Shown here one piece after another: positions 1-14,206 of a DNA stretch of 14,206 nucleotides; the stretch's first letter is position 1, and the number at the start of each line of letters is the position of its first letter. Origin of the DNA: Promethearchaeota archaeon (lineage in GTDB: Archaea; Asgardarchaeota; Lokiarchaeia; Sigyniarchaeales; SOKP01); contig SHMW01000096.1 of NCBI GenBank assembly GCA_008080735.1, positions 1 through 14,206 of the forward strand. The letters run 5' to 3'. Under the pieces are notes generated by a model that saw only the letters and a program-made list of their open reading frames with translations, was not told where the DNA came from and ran no database searches. The translations under genes and the position numbers were made by a program.

Positions 1-908
1 ATAAGATCTTTTATTTCTTCTAAGGAATGGATGGAGTTAAGTGTAATTAGTATTCTCAAACCTCGAATAGTTAAAAGACCCATTATCTTTTTTAATACCT
101 TTTTAGCAGCTATGCTATCGGGCGAGTCTTCTGCTCCATAAAGCCAACTGGAATCGAAAACCGTTTCATTCTCCTCCTCTGATTTTAAAAAAGACATGAT
201 TCTTTCAAAATCATCTATAAATATGATTGTACCCAATTTAGAATTTTCAATGAGTATCTTCAACATTGTAAAAGCATTCTCTTTCTTTCTTAAATCATTC
301 TCAACATTAAGCATTTTCAGCTCTCTAATATTCATCAGCTCACCGAGAATATAATTCTCCGCTTCAAGACGCTTATATGGATCTAATTGGTGGGCAGTTA
401 TGACATTAATGGAATCTTCGAGGGCAGAATTATCTTGATAAGTATACTTCCATTCATTGAAAGCATTATTTCTTGCTTTTTTGATATCCACTATCGGAAA
501 AAATCCATATCTTTTTTTATATGCTCCCCATTTATGGCATAATTTATTTGTAATTTTTCTTAGAGAAATAACGCCCAATTCGTCAATAAATTCAGAATAT
601 AAATTATAATAAAATTTTTTGTAAATATTATCCAAGGAAATATGGATTACGTTGAAATTTTTTTTCAATTTTCTTCTTAAAGTCCAGAATACATGAGTTT
701 TACCTATTCCAACATCTCCGATTAGTGGTAAAATACAATTTTCATTAAGTTTAATAACTTGATCGATATTATTAAGGAGTTCGACTCTTGAATCAACAAC
801 ACCCAGCGGTTCATTTATCTCTCCCGTAGCCACAAATCTTCTGAAAGGGTTTATTCCACTCTTTAAGATTCTTAAAAGCTTTTGCTCTTTATTTTCCCAT
901 AATAACAT
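1..908 (-). CDS. P-loop ATPase (STAND/BrxD-DUF2791-like), 3' end truncated by the window edge; not in the ORF track
   Basis: Manual translation from ATG at 908 is open for 302 codons to the edge: MLLWENKEQKLLRILKSGINPFRRF... It has Walker A ILPLIGDVGIGKT (G64-T71, nt ~719-696) and Walker B TIIFIDDFE (aa 227-235), with ~155 aa of helical-looking sequence between them. SD-like GGGGGT at 921-916. Confidence 0.88.
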   Translation of the reverse strand, partial: MLLWENKEQKLLRILKSGINPFRRFVATGEINEPLGVVDSRVELLNNIDQVIKLNENCILPLIGDVGIGKTHVFWTLRRKLKKNFNVIHISLDNIYKKFYYNLYSEFIDELGVISLRKITNKLCHKWGAYKKRYGFFPIVDIKKARNNAFNEWKYTYQDNSALEDSINVITAHQLDPYKRLEAENYILGELMNIRELKMLNVENDLRKKENAFTMLKILIENSKLGTIIFIDDFERIMSFLKSEEENETVFDSSWLYGAEDSPDSIAAKKVLKKIMGLLTIRGLRILITLNSIHSLEEIKDL

Positions 909-925
909 CAAAATTACCCCCTTTC

Positions 926-1552
926 TCAGTCCTTTATTGCTTCAATCCCTAAAATAATAATATAATCGATTAATTCATCATCCACGTTTACTATGGATTC
1001 ATAACTTACAGAAAGATCATTCTCTTCATTTCTTCCAATAATTAGAGCCCCGTAGAATATTGGGTCTCCTTGTTGGTCAATAACAACTCGATCAGCAAGA
1101 CAAATACCATTCCGAATTAATGCGACAGGATTTTTTAAAATTTCTCCTTTAAAAAAATTTAGATGGTTAATTTTAAAATTATTTTCGGACAAATATAATC
1201 CTGCGGAATGCAATAAATTTATAGCATAAGGAAATGTTTCTGAAAAGCGCTCTTGGTCAAATTGTTCAATTTCTTCTTCGGGTACTAATACAGAATAATC
1301 AATTTCTCCTTTTTTTATATCATATTCGTAGCGCGCACTCTTTGAAAAAGCCTCTTTTTTCTGTTCAGAAATCGATTCGAATCCTATCTTCAGCCCTTTT
1401 GGAATTTCTATAATATTTTCATTTGAATACAGTTTATCGGAGAATATGATTGTGTCATTTTTACATTTTGTGATACAAGAACCTTTAAATTCTCCTAATT
1501 CTCTGAAATTTTTTATTGAATCGTATATAATATAACGTTCTCTTAAGGTCAT
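926..1552 (-). CDS. Hypothetical protein (208 aa), probably co-transcribed with the ATPase
   Basis: 208-aa ORF in AT-rich DNA with a normal protein composition. Its stop lies 17 nt before the ATPase ATG. No recognisable motif. Confidence 0.75.
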   Translation of the reverse strand: MTLRERYIIYDSIKNFRELGEFKGSCITKCKNDTIIFSDKLYSNENIIEIPKGLKIGFESISEQKKEAFSKSARYEYDIKKGEIDYSVLVPEEEIEQFDQERFSETFPYAINLLHSAGLYLSENNFKINHLNFFKGEILKNPVALIRNGICLADRVVIDQQGDPIFYGALIIGRNEENDLSVSYESIVNVDDELIDYIIILGIEAIKD

Positions 1553-1750
1553 AACAGTTTGGTTCCCATTCTTTATTAGAGTTGATTGATTAAAATAATA
1601 ACAAAATCCAACTTGAGCATCAATAATCTGAGTATTATATTTAAATATAGTTCATTATTAAATAAAAGTTTAGAAAGTCCAGAAATAATAGTATGCCTCA
1701 ATAAATTCTAATGTCATACCATAATACTAAAATTTTTATCAATTTAGGAT

Positions 1751-2926
1751 TTGATTATAATGATGACGATAAGGTTATATTGGGATGAGCCCTATAAGAG
1801 GGAATTTAACGCAAGGATTGATGAGATTGTGAGGGATGGAATTATTTTGAGTAGAACCGTTTTTCATCCCGAAGGCGGAAACCAAGCGGGTGATAAAGGA
1901 ATTTTAGAAAAAGATAATCAAATTTTTAAAGTAGATAATACATCCTCTCTGAATGGTAATATCATTCATCATATCTCATCAGATTTACAAGGAAGGCTTA
2001 AAATTGGAGACAAAATAAAAGGGAAAATTGATTGGGATCATAGATATGGACTCATGAAGTCGCATTCCTCTCAACATCTATTGTCCGCAATATTAAAAAG
2101 AGAATTTGATATAAACACTAACAAGGTAAAAATTCGAGATGATTTTGTGGTATTAAATTTGTCTCAAAAAATAACCGATTCACAGCTATTAAAGGTTCTA
2201 TTAACTGCTAATGAATTCTTTATCCAAAAAAAATTAAGGATTTTTCAAAAATTGGTACCTTTTGAAGAGGCTCAAAATTATAAACCACAACTCAGAGGAA
2301 CAATTCCGAACAAAAAAAAAGTGCGGTTAGTTTTCACTGAGGATTATGACATAACCTGTTGTGGAGGTACTCATGTAAAATATTCCAATGAGATAGGACC
2401 CATATTAGTCTTTGAGTTTAAAAAAGGAAAGAAACTCAAATATTATACAGGCAAAAAAGCTATAGAATACATAGCAAAATATAATATAGATTTTCTAAAC
2501 ATCTCTGAAAAATTCCAGATCCCTCTAAGTGAAGTTAATGAACGTATCAATTGCCAAATTGAAAATTCAGAAAAATTAGTTGAAAATAATATATCCTTGA
2601 AAAAAGAACTTTTAGAATTAGTAGTAAGCAATCCATCTTTGATAAAAAATAATATAAAAATATCATATGTATCATTTCCAATAGAATTTGATATATTAAA
2701 CGAATTCTTTGATAGTTTAGCTGATAAAATATTGTTAATTTTAAAATTAGAAAATCAAGTCCTAAAAATAGTTACGAATTATGAGAATGTTAGCGCAGCA
2801 GAGATTTTGGATAAATTATTAAATAAATTTGGGGGAAAAGGAGGTGGAAGCTCATTTATTGCTCAAGGCAAAATTGAAAAATTTCCCGATGATATTCTAA
2901 ATATAATAGGACAAATGCTCCATTAA
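1751..2926 (+). CDS. alaX: AlaX-L type alanyl-tRNA editing protein (trans-editing deacylase with C-terminal C-Ala/DHHA1-like domain)
   Basis: N-terminal LYWDEPY..EF.A and TVFHPEGGNQAGDKG; Zn-binding HSSQH (HxxxH) and CGGTH (CxxxH); C-terminal GGKGGGSSFIAQG. No aminoacylation domain. The real start may be ATG 1760 or 1763 rather than TTG 1751. Confidence 0.92.
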   Translation: MIIMMTIRLYWDEPYKREFNARIDEIVRDGIILSRTVFHPEGGNQAGDKGILEKDNQIFKVDNTSSLNGNIIHHISSDLQGRLKIGDKIKGKIDWDHRYGLMKSHSSQHLLSAILKREFDINTNKVKIRDDFVVLNLSQKITDSQLLKVLLTANEFFIQKKLRIFQKLVPFEEAQNYKPQLRGTIPNKKKVRLVFTEDYDITCCGGTHVKYSNEIGPILVFEFKKGKKLKYYTGKKAIEYIAKYNIDFLNISEKFQIPLSEVNERINCQIENSEKLVENNISLKKELLELVVSNPSLIKNNIKISYVSFPIEFDILNEFFDSLADKILLILKLENQVLKIVTNYENVSAAEILDKLLNKFGGKGGGSSFIAQGKIEKFPDDILNIIGQMLH

Positions 2927-3025
2927 AGTCATTTTAGGTTTCTTTTCATGATTTATTGTTTTAAGCGTAAAAAAATATAAATGCAGATTTGATATTAATA
3001 ATATAAATCTACTGTTGGATATTCG

Positions 3026-4270
3026 ATGGAACCCAAAATTGTAAATAGAGAAGTCTCAGATCTGTCAAGAAAAGAATTACTTGCACGGAGTTCTGAGTTT
3101 ATTTTCTCTACGGGATTAAACGATGGTACCTCAAGTCTGTGTAAAGAAAATATGAAATATGGTCTAGCGCAAATGCACTTAATCCTAGAGAAGTATGGAT
3201 TCGAACCTAATGCTCTGTTTATATCTTCTCCAGATGAGACTATTTCTAGGAATAGATATCGATGGAATTCAGGTTATGGATATGGAGGTAAATTAGAATG
3301 GGGTGCTGGTGATGATAAAATTGTTTTCCTTAATACAAAACCGAATCATTGTGGTATCTTAGTCCTTGGACTTTGGGAGATGATGGATCCTTATGAAATC
3401 ATCAAGAAAATAGACGAAATAAAATCTAAAGAATTATATTTCGATGGTATTCGGTTAAATTGGGATTATGGCATAAGTAATCATTTCATAAGTTGTTTTA
3501 AAACCAATAATTTAACAGATATGGAATATCCGCCCTATATTTTCTTAATTCATGGCTCCGCTCCGGAATTGCGAGATGATACCTATGGTATAGGCGTATA
3601 TATTGATAAATCTGAAAATCTTAAAAATATGTCAATTAAGGAAGAAACCAAATTCGGAACTCAATATATTGTATTAGATTCAGATGCAGATGAATATATG
3701 GAAATAAATAAAAGAGCCTTAGAATTTTCTTGTAAAAAACGTGAAATAATTGCTCAACACCTATTTGAAAATGAATTTACAATTATTTGTAATCAACCTC
3801 ATCAATTTCTTAAAGATTACAATAGCATCTACTTAGGGAGTAACTGCACGGATATAGAATGTGATTTAATTAATTCGAGTACCTTTCCTATTGCGTTACG
3901 TTCTGATATTTCAGCATATTTGATGGAGGGTACAAATAACTTGACTAAACAGACTATGATGAATTTAGGCTTTTATGAAAGAGCGAAAAAATTGGAGGTG
4001 AATGATAGATTAGAAAATGCCAATATTACCCCACATGGAGCGGGCTATGCTTTTCCAGATATTAAAGATGTAATTAATGTGCTAGAATATAAGGACCAAC
4101 GATATTTTGTTTGTCGTTTGAAAAAAGGAAAAAATAGACTGAAAATTGTGAGAGTAGTATCCGATTTACAATATGAATATCGAAAACGTGAGGTAGTACT
4201 TAAAGCAGTTCAATTAAACTTGGGAAGATTAACGGCTCGTCTTACTCCAGTGTTTAGTTTAAAATTATAA
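3026..4270 (+). CDS. Highly diverged RtcB-family (3'-phosphate/5'-OH RNA ligase-like) protein
   Basis: RtcB-like motifs appear in the canonical order: PD70, GYGYGG, NHC109G, GISNH153F, LIH176GS, EY..I..RA.EF...KR.II helix, H259, PIALRSDISAYLMEG, TPH337GAG, EYRK.EVV and C-terminal ARLTPVFSLK413. Confidence 0.75.
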   Translation: MEPKIVNREVSDLSRKELLARSSEFIFSTGLNDGTSSLCKENMKYGLAQMHLILEKYGFEPNALFISSPDETISRNRYRWNSGYGYGGKLEWGAGDDKIVFLNTKPNHCGILVLGLWEMMDPYEIIKKIDEIKSKELYFDGIRLNWDYGISNHFISCFKTNNLTDMEYPPYIFLIHGSAPELRDDTYGIGVYIDKSENLKNMSIKEETKFGTQYIVLDSDADEYMEINKRALEFSCKKREIIAQHLFENEFTIICNQPHQFLKDYNSIYLGSNCTDIECDLINSSTFPIALRSDISAYLMEGTNNLTKQTMMNLGFYERAKKLEVNDRLENANITPHGAGYAFPDIKDVINVLEYKDQRYFVCRLKKGKNRLKIVRVVSDLQYEYRKREVVLKAVQLNLGRLTARLTPVFSLKL

Positions 4271-4321
4271 TCCATCAATAAAAATGGTTAAAATTAAAAA
4301 TTCAAAAAATTAGAATATTAT

Positions 4322-6373
4322 TTATTCTATTTTGGCTCCCGATTCAACATCCTTATCGGGTGTTAGAACAGAAACTTGATCTCCTTCTACAGCAGCTAAT
4401 AACATACCTTCACTTAGAACTCCCCTTAGCTTTTTTGGTTCGAGGTTTATCAAAACCGCTATCTTCTTTCCAATTAATTCTTCCGGTTTATAGTACTTTG
4501 CTAGTCCAGCAGCTAATGTTCGTAATTCATCACCCACGGATATCGTTAATTTGTATAGTTTATCTGCATTAGCTACCTCTTCAACTTTTTCTATATTTGC
4601 GACTCGAATATCTAATTTTTTAAAATCGTCATAAGAAATATAATCCATTTTTTTTCCTTCCTTTTTTTGTTTTTTGATATTTACCAGATTTTTTTTAATG
4701 TCCTCAATATCTAACTTTTGGAAAAGCGGTTGGGCCTTCTTAATTGATTGCCCAGTTTCTAATGCATTTTCTTTAATACTTTCCCATCCAAGATCATTAA
4801 GATTTTGTTCAATATTCAACAATTCAAGAATCTTTTCAGAAGTCTCGGGAATAAATGGACTGAGTAGAATCGCTAAGGCGTATACAAATTGCGCACATAA
4901 ATGAAACACATGACCTGCTGCTTTTTTATTCTTCTTAATAATATGCCAAGGTGCTTTTTCGTTTAGGTAAATGTTGCCTTCCCGTGCAAATTCAACAATT
5001 TCTCGAATAGCTTTTCTCATCTCAAAATTATCTAAAAAATGTCCTATTTTGTTTGATATTGAGTTGATTTTTGAAATAAAATTTATATCTGTCTCATCTA
5101 AATCTATCTTTTCAGGAATTTTACTCTTAAATTGTTTGTTAATAAAGGTTAGTGTTCTGTGAATAAAATTTCCAATCACATCGTTTAAGGTATTCATATT
5201 ATTTTCAAATTCCGACCATAAAAACGATGTATCACTTTTTTCTGGTCTATTATAGACTAAATTAAACCTCCAATAATCCAGTGGGGCGATTTCAAGAGCC
5301 TCATCAATCCAAATTCCCACACCACGAGATTTAGAAAATTTATCATTTTCATACATTAAGAATTCGGTTGAGGACACGTTATATGGAAGCACGAATTTTT
5401 CATCTTCCTTTTTATTATCATTATATGCCATAAGCAGACCCGGGAAAACAATAAGATGGAAGATAATATTGTCTTTTCCAATGAAATATACAGTTTTCGT
5501 TTCTTGATCTTTCCAATAATAATCGAATTTGGAAGATTCCTTTACTATCCTCTCTGACCACTCTTTTACAGCGGAAATGTACCCGAGAACTGCTTCAAAC
5601 CACACATATATAGACTTATTTTCCGCTCCTTTAAAGGGAGCTGGAATCCCCCATTCTAAATCTCTGGTTATTGCTCGCTCGGGCAATCCCTCATTAATAC
5701 TATTTAAACATACTTGTCGCGCGTTCTGGGGGATTATTTCATTATTTTGTATTATCTCTGCCAATCTTTTTTGTAATTGAGGAAAATCCATATACCAGTG
5801 TTTTGTTTTTTTTATTTCTGGTGTCTCTCCACATATAGCACAACGAGGTTCTTTTAATTCAAGTGGAGTCAAGAGTTTTTGACATTTATCACATTGATCT
5901 CCACGGGCATTTTCAAAACCACAATGAGGACATATTCCTTCTACGAATCGATCTGGTAAAAATAATGCATCATGACTACAATAAAGAGATTTTATTTCTT
6001 TTTCAAAAATATATCCGTTTTTTTGAACCTCTGAATAAAAATTTTGAGAAAACTCGATATGAACTGGATTGTGAGTTTGCGTGTAGTTATCATAGGAAAT
6101 TCTCCATTTTTCAAACAAATTTTTAATAATGGCATGATTTTTCATTGCTAAATCTTCCGCATCCATCCCTTCTCTCTTCGCTGCTACTGCTACCGGGGTT
6201 CCATGCATATCAGATCCTGATACAAACACCACCTCCTCTCCTTTTAATCTAAGATAACGAGCAAATATGTCAGCGGACAAAACACTCCCGATTAAGTTCC
6301 CTAAATGAGGAATGGCATTCACATAAGGCCAAGCTGAAGTGACAACCCATTTTCCTTTTTTTGACTTTGACAA
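4322..6373 (-). CDS. metG: Methionine--tRNA ligase with C-terminal Trbp111-like tRNA-binding domain
   Basis: TSAWPYVNAIPHLGN (HIGH), GSDMHG, Zn knuckles CPHC/CDKC/CAIC, YVWFEA, FIGKDNIIFH and KFSKS (KMSKS). C-terminal DDFKKLDIRV...LRGVLSEGMLLAA. TTG start preceded by GGAGGT. Confidence 0.98.
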   Translation of the reverse strand: MSKSKKGKWVVTSAWPYVNAIPHLGNLIGSVLSADIFARYLRLKGEEVVFVSGSDMHGTPVAVAAKREGMDAEDLAMKNHAIIKNLFEKWRISYDNYTQTHNPVHIEFSQNFYSEVQKNGYIFEKEIKSLYCSHDALFLPDRFVEGICPHCGFENARGDQCDKCQKLLTPLELKEPRCAICGETPEIKKTKHWYMDFPQLQKRLAEIIQNNEIIPQNARQVCLNSINEGLPERAITRDLEWGIPAPFKGAENKSIYVWFEAVLGYISAVKEWSERIVKESSKFDYYWKDQETKTVYFIGKDNIIFHLIVFPGLLMAYNDNKKEDEKFVLPYNVSSTEFLMYENDKFSKSRGVGIWIDEALEIAPLDYWRFNLVYNRPEKSDTSFLWSEFENNMNTLNDVIGNFIHRTLTFINKQFKSKIPEKIDLDETDINFISKINSISNKIGHFLDNFEMRKAIREIVEFAREGNIYLNEKAPWHIIKKNKKAAGHVFHLCAQFVYALAILLSPFIPETSEKILELLNIEQNLNDLGWESIKENALETGQSIKKAQPLFQKLDIEDIKKNLVNIKKQKKEGKKMDYISYDDFKKLDIRVANIEKVEEVANADKLYKLTISVGDELRTLAAGLAKYYKPEELIGKKIAVLINLEPKKLRGVLSEGMLLAAVEGDQVSVLTPDKDVESGAKIE

Positions 6374-6382
6374 TGTGAATAT

Positions 6383-6388
6383 ACCTCC
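6383..6388 (-). promoter_or_regulatory. Shine-Dalgarno site of metG
   Basis: GGAGGT on the minus strand, 9 nt upstream of the TTG at 6373. Confidence 0.7.
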
Positions 6389-6560
6389 GTTTATTACTTA
6401 AAATTCAATGATATAAGTATATAGAATAAGCTCCAATAAAATAAAGATTTATGGTAAATATTTTATAGGATATATGTTAATCCAATCAAATCTAAGAGAA
6501 ATTAGAGAATGGAATTAAAATTTATCTTTTTATTATAATTTTTTCTTAGATAGCTAAAAT

Positions 6561-7139
6561 TCAAAATATTTCAATGAATTTCACTGTTTTTCCATCATAT
6601 TTGACTGCAATGCCGCCAAATAATAAAAATTGGCGATAAAACCATTTTAATTTAGGATATCCGTTTCTGGATATTTCTAAGGTCTTTTCATCAAAAATTT
6701 CTGAAAGATAAATTTTATCTATAGTTAATGTAGAAAGTTTTTTTTCTTTCATTAATGATTTAATCTTTTGGTAGCCCGCTTTAAATTCTTGTGTTAAATT
6801 CTCAGATTTTTCCAGAAAGAGGAAATTCAAGGCTAATTCTTGTGAAGAAGAAATGGCTAAAATAACGCTTGGACCCAATTGTTTCAAAATTAACCATCCT
6901 TTAGCATAATGAATATTTACTTGATCGAAAAAACCCATATTCATCTCTTGAATTAAATTTTTGGAAAGAAATTGTATCACCGTTATAATCGCCGCGACTT
7001 TTACTATATCGGTATCAAGTTTAGAAGTAGAAGCAATTGGCATTCCTTCATTATTAACAATGAAGGCTGAATTCACTTCAGAATATTTCTCTAAAACAAT
7101 TTCTAAAAATTTATTGAGATTTCCTACAAAGGATTTCAT
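6561..7139 (-). CDS. Roadblock/LC7 (MglB-like) domain protein with a ~75-aa C-terminal extension
   Basis: EVNSAFIVNNEGMPIAS..., VAAIITVIQFLSKNLIQEMNMGFFDQVNIHYAKGWLILKQLGPSVILAI match the Roadblock pattern. SD-like GAGG upstream. Confidence 0.88.
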   Translation of the reverse strand: MKSFVGNLNKFLEIVLEKYSEVNSAFIVNNEGMPIASTSKLDTDIVKVAAIITVIQFLSKNLIQEMNMGFFDQVNIHYAKGWLILKQLGPSVILAISSSQELALNFLFLEKSENLTQEFKAGYQKIKSLMKEKKLSTLTIDKIYLSEIFDEKTLEISRNGYPKLKWFYRQFLLFGGIAVKYDGKTVKFIEIF

Positions 7140-7215
7140 ATAAATTGCCTCGAATTTTGAAATTTACTTCTCAAAAAAATTTATGATTAATTTTGTTTTT
7201 TTGAGTATAAATAAT

Positions 7216-8394
7216 TTATTCAAAAATAATTTGTGAACCGCAATATCGGCAAGCACCTATTTCTTTGTACATTTTTTCGAGACAAGGTTTATGATAATAA
7301 GAACCGCATTCTTCGCATTTAAAGACATTATAATCTCCCAAAAAAATACTATGGCAATAAGAGCAAGATGCATTTATATTTCTAATCTGATTATCCGGGA
7401 TTAAGAGCATCTTTGTTGTTTGATTGTCTTCCTCTCCCACAATTTCGACTTTCTTTTTCTGATCTATGTCATCTCCTACAATTTTTAATACCGAAGAGGG
7501 TACCCGCAGGAGAAAATAACAGAAAGGGCACCTAAATATATTTTTTTTGTATTCTGTCCTTTTAGACCAGAGAGCCGCACACGTAAGATGCATAGGACGA
7601 TCACATGATGGACAATAGCGACCCTCCGAGAAAAAATCTGAATTGGTGAGTGGAGACTTTACAGAATGACAAATCTGGCATTTCTCTTGTCCTGAGCCTT
7701 CATTGTTCATCATCATCCGTATTTCCATTATGGTAGGGCGTCTTAATGGTAAGGCAACTTCACTTATTAAAGGAGGCATCTCTTTTTTTTTCGCAGGGGA
7801 AAAATAATCTGATGTCTTTTTGAGGTTCTTTTTGGAGGCAAAAGACTTTCCCGCATTAATTACCGCTTTGGGGTTGGTAAAAAAACCATATTCCCCACCC
7901 GTGAGTTTGGAAATCTGCTTTAATGTATTTTCTCTTAAACTTTCTGCTAGCCCCAACTGACATGAATCTATAATAATTCCTAATCCTTTAGCGATATTGA
8001 CAATTTCCTCAAGCTTTTTTGACCTCCTAAAATTAGCATCGCTGATAATTATTATTCTTGGAATTTTTCCGCCAATTTTTCTCATCTCTTCAACAAGAAT
8101 TTGAAGGGCAAATGCTATCGCATCATGTAAATCGCCTCTTCCTGAAATTTGGGTCTTTTGCAGTGAATCAATTAGTTTATTTTCTTGATTTGAAAACCCA
8201 CATAATTTTGTGGTAATATCACCAAAACTCAAGATAGCTATTTGGTCCTTTGGATCAATCATTAATTTACTTTTTGTAAAGTTTTTGACCGATTTCAGAG
8301 CAATAGTTAAGCGATTAGGTTTAAAATCTCGCCGAAGCATAGAACGTGATGAATCTATTAAGACAACCGAATCTTCAATCTTTATCTCTTCCAA
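7216..8394 (-). CDS. vWA domain (Ssl1/p44-Rpn10 type) fused to two C4HC3 RING-like zinc fingers
   Basis: VVLIDSSRSM (MIDAS DxSxS), DFKPNRL, IIIISD and ISKLTGGEY. Finger 1: C239/C242/C261/C264/H269/C272/C289/C292. Finger 2: C344/C347/C360/C363/H368/C371/C382/C385. TTG start with AAGGA upstream. Confidence 0.9.
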   Translation of the reverse strand: MEEIKIEDSVVLIDSSRSMLRRDFKPNRLTIALKSVKNFTKSKLMIDPKDQIAILSFGDITTKLCGFSNQENKLIDSLQKTQISGRGDLHDAIAFALQILVEEMRKIGGKIPRIIIISDANFRRSKKLEEIVNIAKGLGIIIDSCQLGLAESLRENTLKQISKLTGGEYGFFTNPKAVINAGKSFASKKNLKKTSDYFSPAKKKEMPPLISEVALPLRRPTIMEIRMMMNNEGSGQEKCQICHSVKSPLTNSDFFSEGRYCPSCDRPMHLTCAALWSKRTEYKKNIFRCPFCYFLLRVPSSVLKIVGDDIDQKKKVEIVGEEDNQTTKMLLIPDNQIRNINASCSYCHSIFLGDYNVFKCEECGSYYHKPCLEKMYKEIGACRYCGSQIIFE

Positions 8395-8472
8395 TTTCTC
8401 TTTTCCTTTAGGTTAATTAAAATTTAGACCAAAATTTAACATATGTTTTGTTTTTTTAATAACTCTTAAAAT

Positions 8473-9834
8473 TTATTGATTTTGTTGGGGTTTTAGAAAA
8501 TTATAAGCAAATAGAGTATAGGTTTTTATTGCATTTATAAAATCTTCAATTTCGATATATTCATCGACAGAATGTGCTGTAGAAGCACTTCCAGGCCCAA
8601 ATAGTATGGTATCAGAACAAAAACCATTGTTTCGCAAATAATGTGCATCTGCACATGCAGGATATAAGATATAAAATGAATCTCTTTCATAAATTTTACC
8701 CACAATGTCATAAAACTGTTTTAATGTATCAGAATCTTTCCAATTTTCCCAATAAGAGCCCTCAGATTTATGTATAATTTCAAAGGTAAAATACGCATCA
8801 GCTTTTTCTTCCTCTGGTTCTTTGAATTCATATCCTAAATCTTTTATTAAACCTTTGAGAGCATTTAAGATTTGATTAGGATCTTGCTTTGGTAATAACC
8901 GAAAGTCTATAACCATTTCACATCGATCGGGAACCACATTTTCTTTTATCCCTCCTCCGATCATGGTCACACTCTTAGTGAACTTCGTTAATGATTCCAC
9001 AAGATGTTGTAGTAATTCTTGTTGCTGGTAAATATTTTCGAAAATATCCTTGCTTGGAAATGCCTCTGCTATCAAATCTTTTAGTTCTACAAATGATATG
9101 GGAGGTTCTATTTCTGGAATTTTACTATCTATTTGGTCAAGTTTATGCAAAAGTTCGTTGACCATAAGTATCGCATTTTTCCCCATAGACGGCATTGATG
9201 CGTGGCATGAAATTCCATGTGCAATTATTTTCAGTTGGAGATGGCCTCTTTCTCCTAGCACTATTGCTTTAGGTAAAGGACTCAATCCAGTAGGTTCACC
9301 AACTATCGCAAAATCGCACTTAATATCTGCAAGCTTATTCTCCAACACCCATTTTGTTCCCTTTTTTCCTCCCGTCTCCTCATCCGATACGGCCGTTAAA
9401 ATAAGATTACCTTCTATTTCTAAATCTAACTCCTTTAAAATTTGTAAAGAAATAACCATAGCTGTTAACCCCCCTTTCATATCGGCTGCCCCTCTTCCAT
9501 AAATATATTTATTACGCTTATTATAGGCAGATAAAGGAGGATATTTCCAATCTGACTCTGTACCTGCGGGAACTATGTCCATGTGACCATTAAAAAGTAA
9601 ATTCTTCTGTTTAAAATTATCATTCAAAAATGCAATAAGATTTGCTCTATTTTCATCATATTCAAATATTTGTACATCTATATTATGCTCTTTTAAATAC
9701 TGGGAAATAGTATTAGCTAAATTTAATTCATTTCCAGGTGGATTGTAAGAATCAGTCTTGACCATTTCCCGAAAATATTCAATAAATTCGTCTCTTTTTT
9801 TTTCTATATATTGAAGTATTATTTCTTCTGACAT
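8473..9834 (-). CDS. M20 family metallo-hydrolase (ArgE/DapE-like deacylase)
   Basis: DSYNPPGNE, FNGHMD, YGRGAADMKGG, SDEETGG, VGEPT, GISCHAS, ENVVPDRC..IDFR and AHSVDEYI. The substrate cannot be assigned from sequence. Confidence 0.95.
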   Translation of the reverse strand: MSEEIILQYIEKKRDEFIEYFREMVKTDSYNPPGNELNLANTISQYLKEHNIDVQIFEYDENRANLIAFLNDNFKQKNLLFNGHMDIVPAGTESDWKYPPLSAYNKRNKYIYGRGAADMKGGLTAMVISLQILKELDLEIEGNLILTAVSDEETGGKKGTKWVLENKLADIKCDFAIVGEPTGLSPLPKAIVLGERGHLQLKIIAHGISCHASMPSMGKNAILMVNELLHKLDQIDSKIPEIEPPISFVELKDLIAEAFPSKDIFENIYQQQELLQHLVESLTKFTKSVTMIGGGIKENVVPDRCEMVIDFRLLPKQDPNQILNALKGLIKDLGYEFKEPEEEKADAYFTFEIIHKSEGSYWENWKDSDTLKQFYDIVGKIYERDSFYILYPACADAHYLRNNGFCSDTILFGPGSASTAHSVDEYIEIEDFINAIKTYTLFAYNFLKPQQNQ

Positions 9835-9988
9835 ACAAGCCCATAAAGTTATAATTCTTAGACTAATTAATATATAGGATTGAGATAATTTAAAAACTAT
9901 TTTCTACTCTAACTTTTAATAAATTTTTAAAATTTGCAAATTTTACTTATAGTAATTATATATTAAATAGTATTCAACGGGTAATTTC

Positions 9989-12900
9989 TTGTCTCATCAA
10001 AAAAGATTTGTTAAAAAGCGTTTCTTAGCTTTAAGTGTTATTACGCTTATAATTTTCTCTGGTTTTCTATTTGTAGGAAATTTAAATTCGGAGTTTTATA
10101 ATTCTAATACTGATCACGACAATATCGGTCCTATATTACCTTCAAATTGGGATACTGAATTGGATAAAAATATATCAGGTCTAGGAAATAATCAGATTGT
10201 AAGAGTATATCTACAAAATCAATCGTCCTCTCTAGATAATACGGGAGGTAGTTTTGAATTGGAGGCGGTTGATGATACTTATCTTGATTCTGGAGATTTT
10301 TTATTTCAATTTGCGAACAATTTCACTACAAATCACACTATGGTATTTGATTCCACTGACTTGTATAATTTTACTTTTACTAATGAAACAAAACTCGGCT
10401 TAGAATTCGATATTAGAGGAAATAATACGATATTTCATGGATTTTATGCGCATTTGAATACCTCAAACGAAATAGCCGCAACAAACACTGAAATTAATAT
10501 ATCATTATATAGAGCCGATACTTCTACCCAAGACAGGGAGTCTTTAAGTTGTTGGCCTGAAAACTATGTTGATTCAGTTGTTATTACAGATGTAGTTGCT
10601 GACAGTCTTGCATATTACGATTTTCCAGATACCACTCTTGAACCTTTTAATTATTTTATTGTACTTAGCACAAATAATTCTTTAAATGCATATAGCCTTA
10701 TAGCTCATTGGAATGACGAAGGAGAAGGAGAAAATAACGAACATCTGTTAGAAATGGATATTGGACATGGTTGGGAACTAGCCGAAAGATCGATAAGCGG
10801 AGGAGGACAATCAAATGATTTTGATGCCAGTTCCTTTACGCTTAATGTAACTAGAGGATATATGCCAACCGATTTTGAGGTGGATTCAAATAGAACACTA
10901 AGGATTCAAAACATCCCCCTAAATGACACCAAAGAAGAATCATTCATTTACCAAAATATTTATCAATGGGGTGTTGGAAGCTGGGATGCTGAATTTCCCA
11001 ATCCGATATACGACGGAGCAGATGATGATTTTGATGTTACTCTTATGTGGAATCAGAGCGGGACGGGAATAAACGATTTCTTGTTTAATCTGTCGTATTC
11101 TGCCCTGAGCTATCATCAAGGAAATTCAGAGGCAACCTATTTCGCGGATTACAATGGAGATATCAAATGGTCATTAAATTATACCTTGAGCTCAAGCTGG
11201 CTAACTTTGCAGAACTGGAATTTTACTGAGATGTGGTTTTTATATCCTTGGTATCATAATAATCTCAGTTTGATAACTCCCAGTAAGGGATCATCAAATG
11301 TATTAGATATAACAGCCGGAGAAACCCGTTTACAAGAAAATAAGACTTTAGATAAACTAGTAATTCCATATAGTCTTTCCAATTTTAGTGGATTATATGA
11401 ACTTAATTTAACCAGTCCTAATGTGCTAAATCAAATTTACAGTTATATTAATTATAAAGGAAATCTTTTGGAAACCTCTGGATTTATGTTTGAAGATAAT
11501 ATGACCATCCAAGCAGATATCGCAGGCCCAAGTACTTTTGCGCCAACTGGAGGAACGGCGAATGCTAAATTGTTCGATCCAAATGAATTGGAATACGCCA
11601 CAGATACAGAATCGCCAGGTACATTAAGCTTTGATAAAACTCTGCTAACTTATGATTTTAATAATGATACCCTTTTGGAAATTGATGGATCAGTTCCCGA
11701 GGGTACCTATTATCTCGGAATAATATGGAAAAATGGGAGCTTGATTGGGATTGGAAATATTCCAATATATATCAACCATTATGATCTAACTTTTAGGGAA
11801 GTAAATGAACTTGAAGATGAGAATTCCTTTCTATTGACTGATATCTCCAGATTTAATGATAAAAATGATGAATATTATCCATATCAATTGCTTGGTGCTT
11901 CCATTAATGAAACAGATGAATTTCCAGAAAATTTCTATGCAATAAAACACGAACAAATGGCTCAAAAATTCCTTTATAAAAATGAAATCGAATTAGAATT
12001 GAGAAATTTCTTGCAGAATGAATCGATCATTAATCCGGGGGAAGAGATTAAGTTTAAAATTACACTAAAAAATAATCGTAGAGGAATAAGCTTAAATAAT
12101 GTAAAAGTTTCAGTTAAATTGGTATCGCCTATAAATGATAATTGGATTATGGCAACGGATGATTCGATTTTACAGACCTTGGAAGGAGCCGGGAATCCCA
12201 ATGGGAATGATCAAAAGAATTTCACTATTTCACTTCAGATACCAACTATTGAAGGACCTAATGGGTTTTGGCCAGGATATAATTCCCCGATTAGATTAGG
12301 TGGTGCGAAGACAATAGTAACTGTATATATAGATAATGAAGAAATTTATTCCTATAATTCTCAAGATTTAGGGCTTCTTGTAAATCAAACTGAAGATCTG
12401 TTTGAGGGCTATATTTTGTCATTATCAAACACACCCGATGGCACAGATAATGGGGCTTCCATACAAATACCTCGAGATAAATGTATTTACACCCCTGGAA
12501 CAACAACCCTTCTTATAAACATCCAAGATTATAACCACATAAGTAGCTATCAGTTGTATAGCAACACCTACCAGATGAATAAGTCAAGTAAATTTCAATC
12601 TATTACAACCACTCCTGAAACACCTGTTCAAGGTGAAAGTTTTAATTTGACTTCACAGTTAACCACCGAATTCGGAACGATTCTCACAGGAGAAACTGTC
12701 AATTGCGAATCCTATAATGGTACTGATTGGATTCTCATTACTGATTCTCCACAAGTGACGGATAGTGATGGAAAAACTTCATTCCAAGTAGATACGACCT
12801 CGATATCAGTTGAGAATGGAATTGTCCAACTTAGATTATTATGGGATGGAAAAGAAAATATTACCGGGATCATAAAGGAAATCAATGTCACTTTGTTTTC

Positions 12901-13516
12901 ATATAACAATGAACTATCTATTAGTGCTAATTTCCGAAATCCACCCATCTATAGAAATTCTGAAGCAATATTAGACATTACATTGACTAATATCGGCGAT
13001 TCTAATTTAAATATAACAAACATCCTTCTTAACTTTCCAGGAATATCACCATTTTATCAAATCGTTGGAAAGGATTCATATTCCTTACAATTCTTTGAAC
13101 CAGACAAATCTACAGAATTAGTATATAAAATATACTTTCAATCTATCCCAACTAATACGCTAAGCATAAATGTTTCTGTTATTGCAACTAATATTGATAC
13201 AAGTGAAATAATCACCGTTGAAACCACTACATCTGTCAGTGTGCTCGATTTCCCGATTTTTGAAAACTTTATGAATTTTTTCACCCTAATAATGGTGTCA
13301 ATTTTAGCGTTAATAATCGCAATCTCATTGTATTATTCATATATCCTAAAACGAAGAATTGAAACCCCCGTATCGAAACCTACAGCGAAAAAGAAAAGAA
13401 GAGGGGTATATAGAAAAGTCTCTGAAATAAAGGAAGAAACTGAAAAAGAAGAAAAGAAAAAGACTAAAAAGAAGAAAACTGATTTAGATTCATTATTAGA
13501 AGAAGAAGGGATTTAA
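9989..13516 (+). CDS. Large membrane-anchored cell-surface glycoprotein (N-terminal signal/TM, beta-rich Ig-like ectodomain, C-terminal TM, charged tail)
   Basis: Basic N-terminus plus hydrophobic FLALSVITLIIFSGFLFV. More than 30 N-x-S/T sequons by hand count. Ig/CARDB-like segments (INPGEEIKFKITLKN, PVQGESFNLTSQL, LDITLTNIGDSNL). TM FFTLIMVSILALIIAISLYYSYIL at 13277-13348, followed by a 55-aa K/E-rich tail. Confidence 0.88.
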   Translation: MSHQKRFVKKRFLALSVITLIIFSGFLFVGNLNSEFYNSNTDHDNIGPILPSNWDTELDKNISGLGNNQIVRVYLQNQSSSLDNTGGSFELEAVDDTYLDSGDFLFQFANNFTTNHTMVFDSTDLYNFTFTNETKLGLEFDIRGNNTIFHGFYAHLNTSNEIAATNTEINISLYRADTSTQDRESLSCWPENYVDSVVITDVVADSLAYYDFPDTTLEPFNYFIVLSTNNSLNAYSLIAHWNDEGEGENNEHLLEMDIGHGWELAERSISGGGQSNDFDASSFTLNVTRGYMPTDFEVDSNRTLRIQNIPLNDTKEESFIYQNIYQWGVGSWDAEFPNPIYDGADDDFDVTLMWNQSGTGINDFLFNLSYSALSYHQGNSEATYFADYNGDIKWSLNYTLSSSWLTLQNWNFTEMWFLYPWYHNNLSLITPSKGSSNVLDITAGETRLQENKTLDKLVIPYSLSNFSGLYELNLTSPNVLNQIYSYINYKGNLLETSGFMFEDNMTIQADIAGPSTFAPTGGTANAKLFDPNELEYATDTESPGTLSFDKTLLTYDFNNDTLLEIDGSVPEGTYYLGIIWKNGSLIGIGNIPIYINHYDLTFREVNELEDENSFLLTDISRFNDKNDEYYPYQLLGASINETDEFPENFYAIKHEQMAQKFLYKNEIELELRNFLQNESIINPGEEIKFKITLKNNRRGISLNNVKVSVKLVSPINDNWIMATDDSILQTLEGAGNPNGNDQKNFTISLQIPTIEGPNGFWPGYNSPIRLGGAKTIVTVYIDNEEIYSYNSQDLGLLVNQTEDLFEGYILSLSNTPDGTDNGASIQIPRDKCIYTPGTTTLLINIQDYNHISSYQLYSNTYQMNKSSKFQSITTTPETPVQGESFNLTSQLTTEFGTILTGETVNCESYNGTDWILITDSPQVTDSDGKTSFQVDTTSISVENGIVQLRLLWDGKENITGIIKEINVTLFSYNNELSISANFRNPPIYRNSEAILDITLTNIGDSNLNITNILLNFPGISPFYQIVGKDSYSLQFFEPDKSTELVYKIYFQSIPTNTLSINVSVIATNIDTSEIITVETTTSVSVLDFPIFENFMNFFTLIMVSILALIIAISLYYSYILKRRIETPVSKPTAKKKRRGVYRKVSEIKEETEKEEKKKTKKKKTDLDSLLEEEGI

Positions 13517-13578
13517 AGATAAAAATTTAAACCAATTAATTTTTTATCCACTTTTTATAAAAATAGAGAAAAATAAAA
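13517..13578. terminator. Putative bidirectional archaeal T-tract terminator between convergent genes
   Basis: T-runs on the + strand (tttttt, ttttt) and A-runs (T-runs on the - strand) in a 62-nt gap between convergent stop codons. Confidence 0.35.
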
Positions 13579-13929
13579 TTAAAGATTAGAAATCGATATC
13601 AAATTCCTTTTTAGTAGTCCTAATGATGCTCTTCCGTCTACACCAGCAAGAGCAATAAGTAACAGTTTCTCTGAACCCGCTAAAACCGCATATCCGCCTT
13701 CTAACTCGATGGTTGTATTTTTAACTGTACCTTTTCCAATATCATTTCCTAGTGTATTTGAATCACTTAAAATTTTCGCACATGCTTTCGCAATGCTTCC
13801 ATGATCCATCTCGGTTAAAGTTTGACCAACAATGACATTTCCATCTGTATCCGCAGCGATTAAGCCCTCACATTCGGGTACAAGGTCCATGAGTTGGGCT
13901 AATTTCGGCTCAATTGTTTCCTTACTCAT
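13579..13929 (-). CDS. Stand-alone Roadblock/LC7 domain protein
   Basis: 116 aa: VPECEGLIAADTDGNVIVG, helix SIAKACAKIL, DIGKGTVKNTTIELEGGYAVL and ASLGLL. SD AAGAGGA upstream. Confidence 0.9.
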   Translation of the reverse strand: MSKETIEPKLAQLMDLVPECEGLIAADTDGNVIVGQTLTEMDHGSIAKACAKILSDSNTLGNDIGKGTVKNTTIELEGGYAVLAGSEKLLLIALAGVDGRASLGLLKRNLISISNL

Positions 13930-14057
13930 ATTTCTTAGAATCCTCTTTTTACCAATTTAATTTCATAAGATAAATAGTGAAACTACTTTAAATATATATA
14001 TTTTTAGCAAAATAAATTTTTTTAAATTTTCGAACATAAAATTTAAAAAAAAAATTT

Positions 14058-14135
14058 GGGAAGCTTGTCGTTCCACCGACTCTGATCTGAAATATACGAT
14101 GATTATCAACGGAAAGACAAGCACTGTCGCCGAGA
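14058..14135 (+). ncRNA. Candidate structured ncRNA: hairpin with internal loop capped by a K-loop (H/ACA-guide-like)
   Basis: GC-richer island in AT-rich intergenic DNA. Lower stem GCTTGTC-G-TTCC (14063-14074) / GGAA-A-GACAAGC (14111-14122), 8x5-nt internal loop, upper stem TGATC/GATTA, and a CTGA-aatatac-GATGA K-loop motif. Boundaries are approximate. Confidence 0.5.
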
Positions 14136-14206
14136 GAAAGAAAATCTTGATTTGATAATTTGTTCTATTACTCCATGAATTAATAAAACTCTATGTATTT
14201 TGGCGT

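Follow-up and report, generated by a model that had tools for sequence, protein, structure and literature searches.

Here, we report that a gene in a 14,206-nucleotide stretch of DNA from a Promethearchaeota archaeon (Lokiarchaeia, Sigyniarchaeales; GenBank assembly GCA_008080735.1, contig SHMW01000096.1, positions 1 to 14,206; hereafter the window) encodes a von Willebrand factor A (vWA) domain followed by two zinc fingers of the RING type, and that this vWA-RING-RING protein belongs to a strongly conserved family of Asgard archaea. On balance, the protein is probably a cytosolic adaptor of the RING E3 type for ligation of ubiquitin or a ubiquitin-like protein (Ubl), specific to Lokiarchaeia. 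We favour this reading because the middle finger (finger 1) keeps three E2-contact positions and best fits catalytic C4HC3 RINGs, and because the last finger (finger 2) resembles the RING of p44 (GTF2H2, Ssl1), a subunit of TFIIH. A preliminary description of the gene, made from the letters alone, had presented the protein as having the architecture of p44 with features of Rpn10. The likeness to p44 is genuine but not specific. It resides chiefly in which domains are combined and in what order rather than in any single domain being specifically p44-like, because each domain matches generic vWA or RING domains as well, as seen from profile scores, tied structural fits and the missing p44 C-terminal domain.

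In the mechanism that we propose, finger 1 would dock a charged E2 of the eukaryote-like Ubl/E1/E2 system that the organism itself encodes, with the vWA domain holding a substrate or partner. Finger 2, like the non-catalytic C-terminal RING of p44, would serve protein-protein contact, for which a universally co-occurring paralogue is one possible partner.

Positions 7216..8394 contain a single long open reading frame (ORF), which runs on the minus strand from a TTG start at 8394 to a stop codon at 7216-7218 and encodes 392 amino acids (aa); orthologues have a Met start at the matching conserved N-terminus M-E-[ED]-I-K-I-E-D. As the preliminary description had stated, a vWA domain and two eight-ligand fingers are accommodated in these 392 aa, both fingers have exactly the ligand spacings it gave, and all motifs it quoted are found (IDSSRSMLRRDFKPNRL at residues 13-29, SKLMIDP, KLIDSLQKTQISG, EGRYCPSC, and CPFCYFLL). 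When 33 family members with identities down to 27% are aligned, 15 of the 16 zinc ligands are invariant and the remaining one, C371, is present in at least 90% of rows, so the ligand pattern is not a product of chance. W276 and L295 are likewise invariant. The gene product is 51-75% identical within its taxonomic family; across the order, identity is about 48%. An AlphaFold2 (AF2) model of the whole protein, built from the family alignment, had a mean predicted local distance difference test (pLDDT) score of 82 and a predicted template modelling score of 0.72, with two low-confidence stretches, one after the vWA domain and one between the fingers. The closest cluster in the public protein collection shares 95% identity with the 392-aa protein and homologues number in the hundreds, with source labels Lokiarchaeota or Promethearchaeota and, for longer variants, Helarchaeota. 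Public records name the protein 'VWA domain-containing protein' and nothing more. The literature searched, which excludes many subscription papers, contained no account of an Asgard protein of the vWA-RING or p44-like kind.

Finger 1 (residues 239-292; 7519..7680, minus strand), delimited by alignment, VIA, and Pfam, is according to the structural model a binuclear cross-brace RING of the C4HC3 type and the candidate E2-binding module. Its ligands are C239-x2-C242-x18-C261-x2-C264-x4-H269-x2-C272-x16-C289-x2-C292. All eight are invariant together with W276, and I241, R288, and P290 occur in at least 90% of rows. I241 (C1+2), W276 (C6+4), and P290 (C7+1) occupy what we take, from RING-E2 structures, to be the E2-contact positions of canonical RINGs. 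Residues 205-392 were modelled separately by AF2 (pLDDT 82) and this model was then compared with known structures using VIA and Foldseek. Finger 1 best fitted the RINGs of FANCL (Z 6.6, root-mean-square deviation (rmsd) 1.8 Å, 62 residues) and listerin (Z 5.8, 28% identity); overall, fits to these two extended over 57-62 residues with rmsd 1.7-1.9 Å and Z 5.8-6.6. Pfam FANCL_C matches 23 of 28 family members. The proposal that the middle finger is Ssl1-like was thus not borne out, as it has eight invariant ligands and is closest to FANCL and listerin, whereas the corresponding finger of p44 is a mononuclear C4 finger.

A potential source of charged E2 is encoded elsewhere in the source genome (4.1 Mb, 33.6% GC, 93% complete), in which Pfam detects two UQ_con E2s (contigs C21 and C118), a ubiquitin-family match (37.9 bits), and several ThiF enzymes (E1). 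On another contig (C21:19304-22300, locus L079), genes for a Ubl, a ThiF-type E1 of 408 aa, a UQ_con E2 of 175 aa, and a JAB deubiquitinase of 264 aa form a compact eukaryote-like ubiquitin cassette, after which comes an ORF without annotation that is at least 212 aa long. From the RING features and this gene set we infer that the protein may bind E2 and could possess ligase activity.

Several observations weigh against a function in ubiquitin transfer. Many active RINGs carry a 'linchpin' Arg or Lys after the last ligand, a position that is Tyr in finger 1. The C4HC3 pattern of finger 1 equally fits a PHD finger, and a Pfam scan restricted to the C-terminal half yields a PHD match at finger 1 of 26.9 bits, over its cut-off of 24. 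The RING of the 392-aa protein itself scores below cut-off with both zf-RING_2 (17.8 bits) and Prok-RING_1 (24.6 bits, cut-off 29.1). Furthermore, the gene is unlinked to Ubl/E1/E2 genes, its neighbours being genes for an M20 peptidase and methionyl-tRNA synthetase (MetRS), and RING domains can be purely structural, as they are in p44 and GATOR2. An alternative explanation is consequently that the protein is a non-catalytic scaffold in which both fingers are structural or peptide-binding, in the manner of PHD fingers or the p44 RING, and which would assemble a complex without transfer of ubiquitin, perhaps in small-GTPase signalling. In addition to the PHD match, this explanation is in line with finger 2, which is without the Pro and Trp of E2-binding RINGs, and with structural RINGs of the SEA and GATOR2 complexes, which VIA also lists for the C-terminal model (Z 4.8-5.1). 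It does not, however, account for finger 1 retaining the full E2-contact triad and best fitting catalytic RINGs. We consider such a scaffold unlikely, albeit worth serious consideration, and return below to the neighbouring genes that bear on it.

Finger 2 (residues 344-385; 7240..7365, minus strand), likewise supported by alignment, VIA, and Pfam, is a RING-like C4HC3 finger whose ligands are spaced much as in p44 (C344-x2-C347-x12-C360-x2-C363-x4-H368-x2-C371-x10-C382-x2-C385). Seven ligands are invariant, C371 being the exception already mentioned, and little else is conserved; hydrophobic residues at E2-contact positions are absent from both sequence and alignment. Of the p44 RING spacing with which it was initially compared, the human p44 stretch examined shows the inner part, C360-x2-C363-x4-C368-x2-C371. 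The finger superimposes best on the p44 C-terminal RING, as had been anticipated, with the top VIA fits being 5nus_B (Z 7.2, rmsd 2.5 Å, 63 residues), human 8ebs_E (Z 7.1), and yeast p44 (Z 6.4). The fit is not specific to p44, because the RING E3s ZNRF1, RNF12, HRD1, and RNF165 follow at Z 6.0-6.3, which by VIA's own rule is a tie with Z 7.2. Foldseek with the C-terminal half alone returned nothing at E ≤ 0.001, the top matches being p44 chains (E 0.017) mixed with RING E3s, and a C-terminal sequence profile searched against PDB gave weak RING, PHD, and C1 matches and no p44 at E ≤ 10. With the family profile, the last finger matched the RING-H2 E3s Arkadia, RNF165, and RLIM in the PDB at 1e-7 to 1e-5 (Arkadia and RNF165 at 1e-7 to 1e-6). 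Pfam zf-RING_2 matches all 28 family C-termini at E ≤ 1, with 2.3e-8 as the best value, and finger 2 is recognised by Prok-RING_1 in 26 of 28 members (best 5.8e-10); C1_1 at the last finger of the 392-aa protein likewise remained below its cut-off. Between the fingers lies a variable linker at about residues 306-326 (7417..7479, minus strand) that is poorly conserved in the alignment and has pLDDT below 50 at 308-324. Compared as profiles, the two fingers match weakly (E 0.0011, probability 21%), a result compatible with an internal duplication but not demonstrating one.

The vWA domain (residues 7-190; 7825..8376, minus strand) is of the kind found in Ssl1 and Rpn10, as indicated by Pfam, the AF2 model (pLDDT mostly 86-98), and VIA. 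Pfam matches this part with VWA_2 (55.6 bits), VWA (37.8 bits), and Ssl1 (PF04056; 35.1 bits, cut-off 27), the latter spanning just positions 2-106 of the 193 profile positions. The metal-ion-dependent adhesion site (MIDAS)-type motif D14-x-S16-x-S18 (8341..8355, minus strand) is evident from sequence and alignment; D14 is present in at least 90% of rows, the Asp is retained at D119, and the usual Thr position is variable. The predicted metal site (DxSxS...D) therefore appears largely intact. C-terminal of the domain, residues 205-232 (7699..7782, minus strand) form a conserved linker with the motif L-x-E-I-A-x-x-L-R-R-P, in which A214 and L217 occur in at least 90% of the 33 sequences and which AF2 models with pLDDT 75-83.

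Structure and sequence point to different relatives of this domain. In VIA, Ssl1 (4wfq) ranked first (Z 25.6, rmsd 2.0 Å over 181 residues), followed on a shallow gradient by Rpn10 (Z 24.2, rmsd 2.2 Å), BatA/BatB (22.3-22.6), and p34 (about 21). Foldseek with the vWA domain alone gave template modelling scores (TMt) of 0.85-0.87 with p44, about 0.8 with Rpn10, and 0.72 with BatB. In the suggested structural comparison with p44, p34, and Rpn10, p44 hence comes first, but the generic BatB (Z 22.3) is close behind; the solved structures of BatB and 4jdu fit only slightly worse than Ssl1 and Rpn10 (Z 22.3-22.6). At the sequence level, prokaryotic proteins consisting of a vWA domain only scored 80-113 bits with the family vWA profile, compared with 71 for Rpn10 and 61 for p44 at equal database size, although these proteins were drawn from a vastly larger pool than Rpn10 and p44. 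One is labelled Thermoplasmatota and several others bear a functional label only or are unnamed. Embedding neighbours in the ESM Atlas agree, as for the vWA domain alone prokaryotic vWA clusters come first and a eukaryotic Ssl1-like cluster follows at rank 8. A sequence search of 1.84 billion representative proteins yielded 268 matches; among the readable sequences of the best 150 there was no p44-like protein, these being family members, their fragments, and prokaryotic vWA-only proteins. In sequence, the vWA domain, initially likened to those of p44 and Rpn10, thus stands nearer to ordinary vWA-only proteins of prokaryotes than to either. Nor is the Pfam Ssl1 model fully specific, because one of ten prokaryotic vWA-only controls also passes its cut-off (E ≤ 1e-4 in two of ten).

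Taken as a whole, the protein still has p44 as its best structural match. The p44 domain order (vWA, zinc finger, RING-like finger) and length, as previously proposed, were confirmed, including the Ssl1 match above cut-off. Foldseek with the whole model filled rows 1-23 with p44/Ssl1 chains only (E down to 8e-18, about 380-400 alignment columns covering most of both proteins), and for the whole protein the nearest non-Asgard clusters in the ESM Atlas are eukaryotic p44 (0.91). In a single-sequence PDB search, human p44 was best (1.2e-6), ahead of Rpn10 (2e-4) and BatB (0.19). It could thus be argued that the protein is an orthologue or precursor of p44, a non-catalytic cofactor that binds and stimulates archaeal XPD, with the paralogue in the role of p34. 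The closest structural fits of both vWA domain and finger 2, the nearly identical ligand spacing of the latter, the two XPD-like helicases of the source genome, and the existence of two paralogues that parallel p44 and p34, one of them with a weak Tfb4 match, are consistent with this proposal. Yet it is improbable in view of what is missing from the genome and what is not p44-like in the protein. Of the Pfam families suggested as a check, Ssl1 and VWA_2 matched but C1_4 (PF07975, the p44 C-terminal domain) matched nothing anywhere in the genome, even with the threshold relaxed to E ≤ 1. Tfb2 (p52) yielded nothing at E ≤ 0.1 in this 93% complete genome, and Tfb4 (p34) gave one sub-threshold match of about 21 bits, located within the paralogue. 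The middle finger is a two-zinc RING according to its ligands and not a single-zinc C4 finger, finger 2 matches ordinary RINGs on a par with that of p44, and prokaryotic vWA-only proteins outscore p44. Both XPD genes (contigs C111 and C36) are unlinked to the vWA-RING-RING gene. XPD is moreover present in well-known archaea of other phyla (control list), whereas the vWA-RING family is, among the genomes sampled, confined to one Asgard class. Neither gene linkage to XPD nor a ubiquitin-interacting motif (UIM) was found to back the initial inference.

A third possibility is a proteasome receptor like Rpn10, docking via its vWA domain onto PAN/proteasome or a lid-like assembly. With the family profile, Rpn10 is in fact the best PDB match (1.1e-18, 70.8 bits), ahead of p44 (1.3e-15, 60.6 bits), a Vibrio vWA protein (9e-12), BatB (1.2e-8), and ArnB (8s05; 2e-8), and its vWA structure is nearly as close as that of p44. 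No UIM or other ubiquitin-binding motif family is among the Pfam matches of the 392-aa protein at E ≤ 0.01, however; its C-terminal half consists of the two RING fingers instead, and prokaryotic vWA-only proteins outscore Rpn10 as well. We therefore regard a receptor of this kind as highly improbable.

The family proposed to exist in Asgard archaea is real and widespread but, among the genomes sampled, confined to a single class. The family profile, searched against 400 genomes, gave a strong full-length match in 159 of 160 sampled genomes of this class, the source genome included. By taxonomic family these amount to 134/134, 1/1, 14/14, 4/4, 3/3, 2/2, and, in the seventh family, 1/2; the single exception is genome G243 (93% complete; best match 2.5e-8). 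Sampled genomes of other Asgard classes had no strong full-length match to the profile (best 1e-6 to 2e-13). In a single-sequence search of 200 other genomes of the phylum, full-length matches occurred only in the own taxonomic family (40/40) and its sister family (3/3). In one related genome (G177), the orthologue of this elsewhere intact gene is split into two pieces (C1:171097-171816 and 177451-177774) separated by some 5.6 kb. Both pieces contain an in-frame TGA, and the arrangement suggests disruption by an insertion.

Genomes examined also encode a second paralogue with about 33% identity, and among the matches listed in the single-sequence search both paralogues occur in nearly all genomes with full-length matches. 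In the source genome, the paralogue is a full-length vWA-RING-RING protein of 400 aa with 36% identity (contig C107:6285-7460; L056:4980-6182). Its Pfam matches are Ssl1 (41.2 bits, positions 2-175), Prok-RING_1 (35.9 bits) and zf-RING_2 (27.5 bits), both above cut-off, and weakly Tfb4 (20.7 bits). The paralogue is arranged head-to-head with a gene of about 400 aa for a Gtr1/RagA-Arf-like GTPase (L056:3114-4319) in 17 of 20 loci, and this pair is also found in sister-family loci whose other neighbours differ. The linkage is compatible with a scaffold in small-GTPase signalling but belongs to the paralogue, not to the vWA-RING-RING gene of the window. The family is expanded in some lineages. 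Genome G183 has ten matches on several contigs (for example C66:82727-86613, C85, and C24), including two vWA-RING genes that flank one GTPase gene.

Within the window, a gene for a Roadblock/LC7-domain protein of 192 aa (6561-7139, minus strand) is located directly downstream of the vWA-RING gene, before MetRS, and could likewise be taken to favour GTPase signalling. It has no counterpart in any of 20 related loci, and is hence not a conserved partner; it looks like an insertion peculiar to the source genome. A second Roadblock gene (116 aa) is at 13579-13929. The order M20 peptidase, vWA-RING-RING gene, MetRS is kept in most of 19 own-family loci but not in the one sister-family locus, a pattern that points to synteny retained by descent and not to a functional operon. 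An ORF of 1175 aa (9989-13516, plus strand) without Pfam or NCBIfam match lies beside the M20 peptidase gene in 18 of 20 related loci; its counterparts there have 1345-1460 aa and the window copy is about 200 aa shorter. A 391-aa AlaX-like protein (1751-2926, plus strand; C-terminal part of alanyl-tRNA synthetase with tRNA_SAD and weak DHHA1) has no homologue in any of the 20 loci and is another local insertion.

The general view is that Rpn10 and the TFIIH subunits other than the helicases arose in eukaryotes and, to our knowledge, lack a prokaryotic counterpart of the same build. The present family is a strongly conserved Asgard protein that has the domain order of p44 and still resembles a working RING ligase, and is thus a testable candidate for the origin of such TFIIH/Rpn10 subunits from parts of the ubiquitin system. 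In addition, the ubiquitin system of Asgard archaea, which is poorly understood, gains a likely E3. These implications are tempered by the restriction of the family to one Asgard class among the sampled genomes and by the fact that, compared with generic vWA and RING domains, those of the family show no demonstrably greater closeness to p44. Descent from an ancestor shared with p44 or Rpn10 is possible but unproven. It is tempting to speculate, though we think it rather doubtful, that the paired Lokiarchaeial paralogues survive in prokaryotes as the sister group of the eukaryotic pair p44/p34, and perhaps also of Rpn10, such that an ancestral vWA-RING-RING ligase was stripped of catalysis and built into TFIIH. 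Contact between finger 2 of one paralogue and the vWA domain of the other would then foreshadow that between the p44 RING and the p34 vWA domain. The ancestral role may in that case have been in GTPase and ubiquitin signalling rather than DNA repair, as suggested by the linkage of the paralogue to a Rag-like GTPase.

Prokaryotic vWA-only proteins (BatA/BatB-like, some labelled 'Ca-activated chloride channel family') share the start D-x-S-x-S-M...D-[FY]-x-P-x-R-L, provide the top scores with the family vWA profile and the nearest Atlas clusters for the vWA domain alone, but have no zinc fingers, and only one of the ten controls passes the Ssl1 cut-off. Members of Prok-RING_1 (PF14446), the Pfam family that finger 2 matches in 26 of 28 members and that is above cut-off in the paralogue, adjoin Ubl/E1/E2/JAB genes, according to the Pfam description. 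The 392-aa protein is under the cut-off of this family and its gene is not beside such genes. With the RINGs of FANCL and listerin, finger 1 shares the C4HC3 ligand pattern and hydrophobic residues at E2-contact positions; the rest of their architecture is wholly unlike, and at Z below 8 the similarity perhaps reflects the common RING fold only. Rpn10 (PSMD4) is the top profile match among solved structures and has a closely superimposable vWA core, yet it continues with UIM motifs where the archaeal protein has two RING fingers. For p44, differences are the middle finger (mononuclear C4 in p44, two-zinc C4HC3 RING in the archaeal protein), the DxSxS metal motif that the archaeal protein retains, a C1_4 undetectable by sequence, Tfb2 not found, Tfb4 below cut-off, unlinked XPD genes, and occurrence in one Asgard class only. 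On the other hand, both proteins are of nearly the same length (392 versus 395 aa) and carry a vWA domain, a zinc finger, and a C-terminal RING-like finger in the same order. p44 is the best Foldseek and VIA match for the vWA domain and the top VIA match for finger 2, the spacing of which is off by one residue with one Cys-to-His change (ligand 5, His in the archaeal protein). This parallel in layout may reflect distant common descent or independent fusion of like domains.

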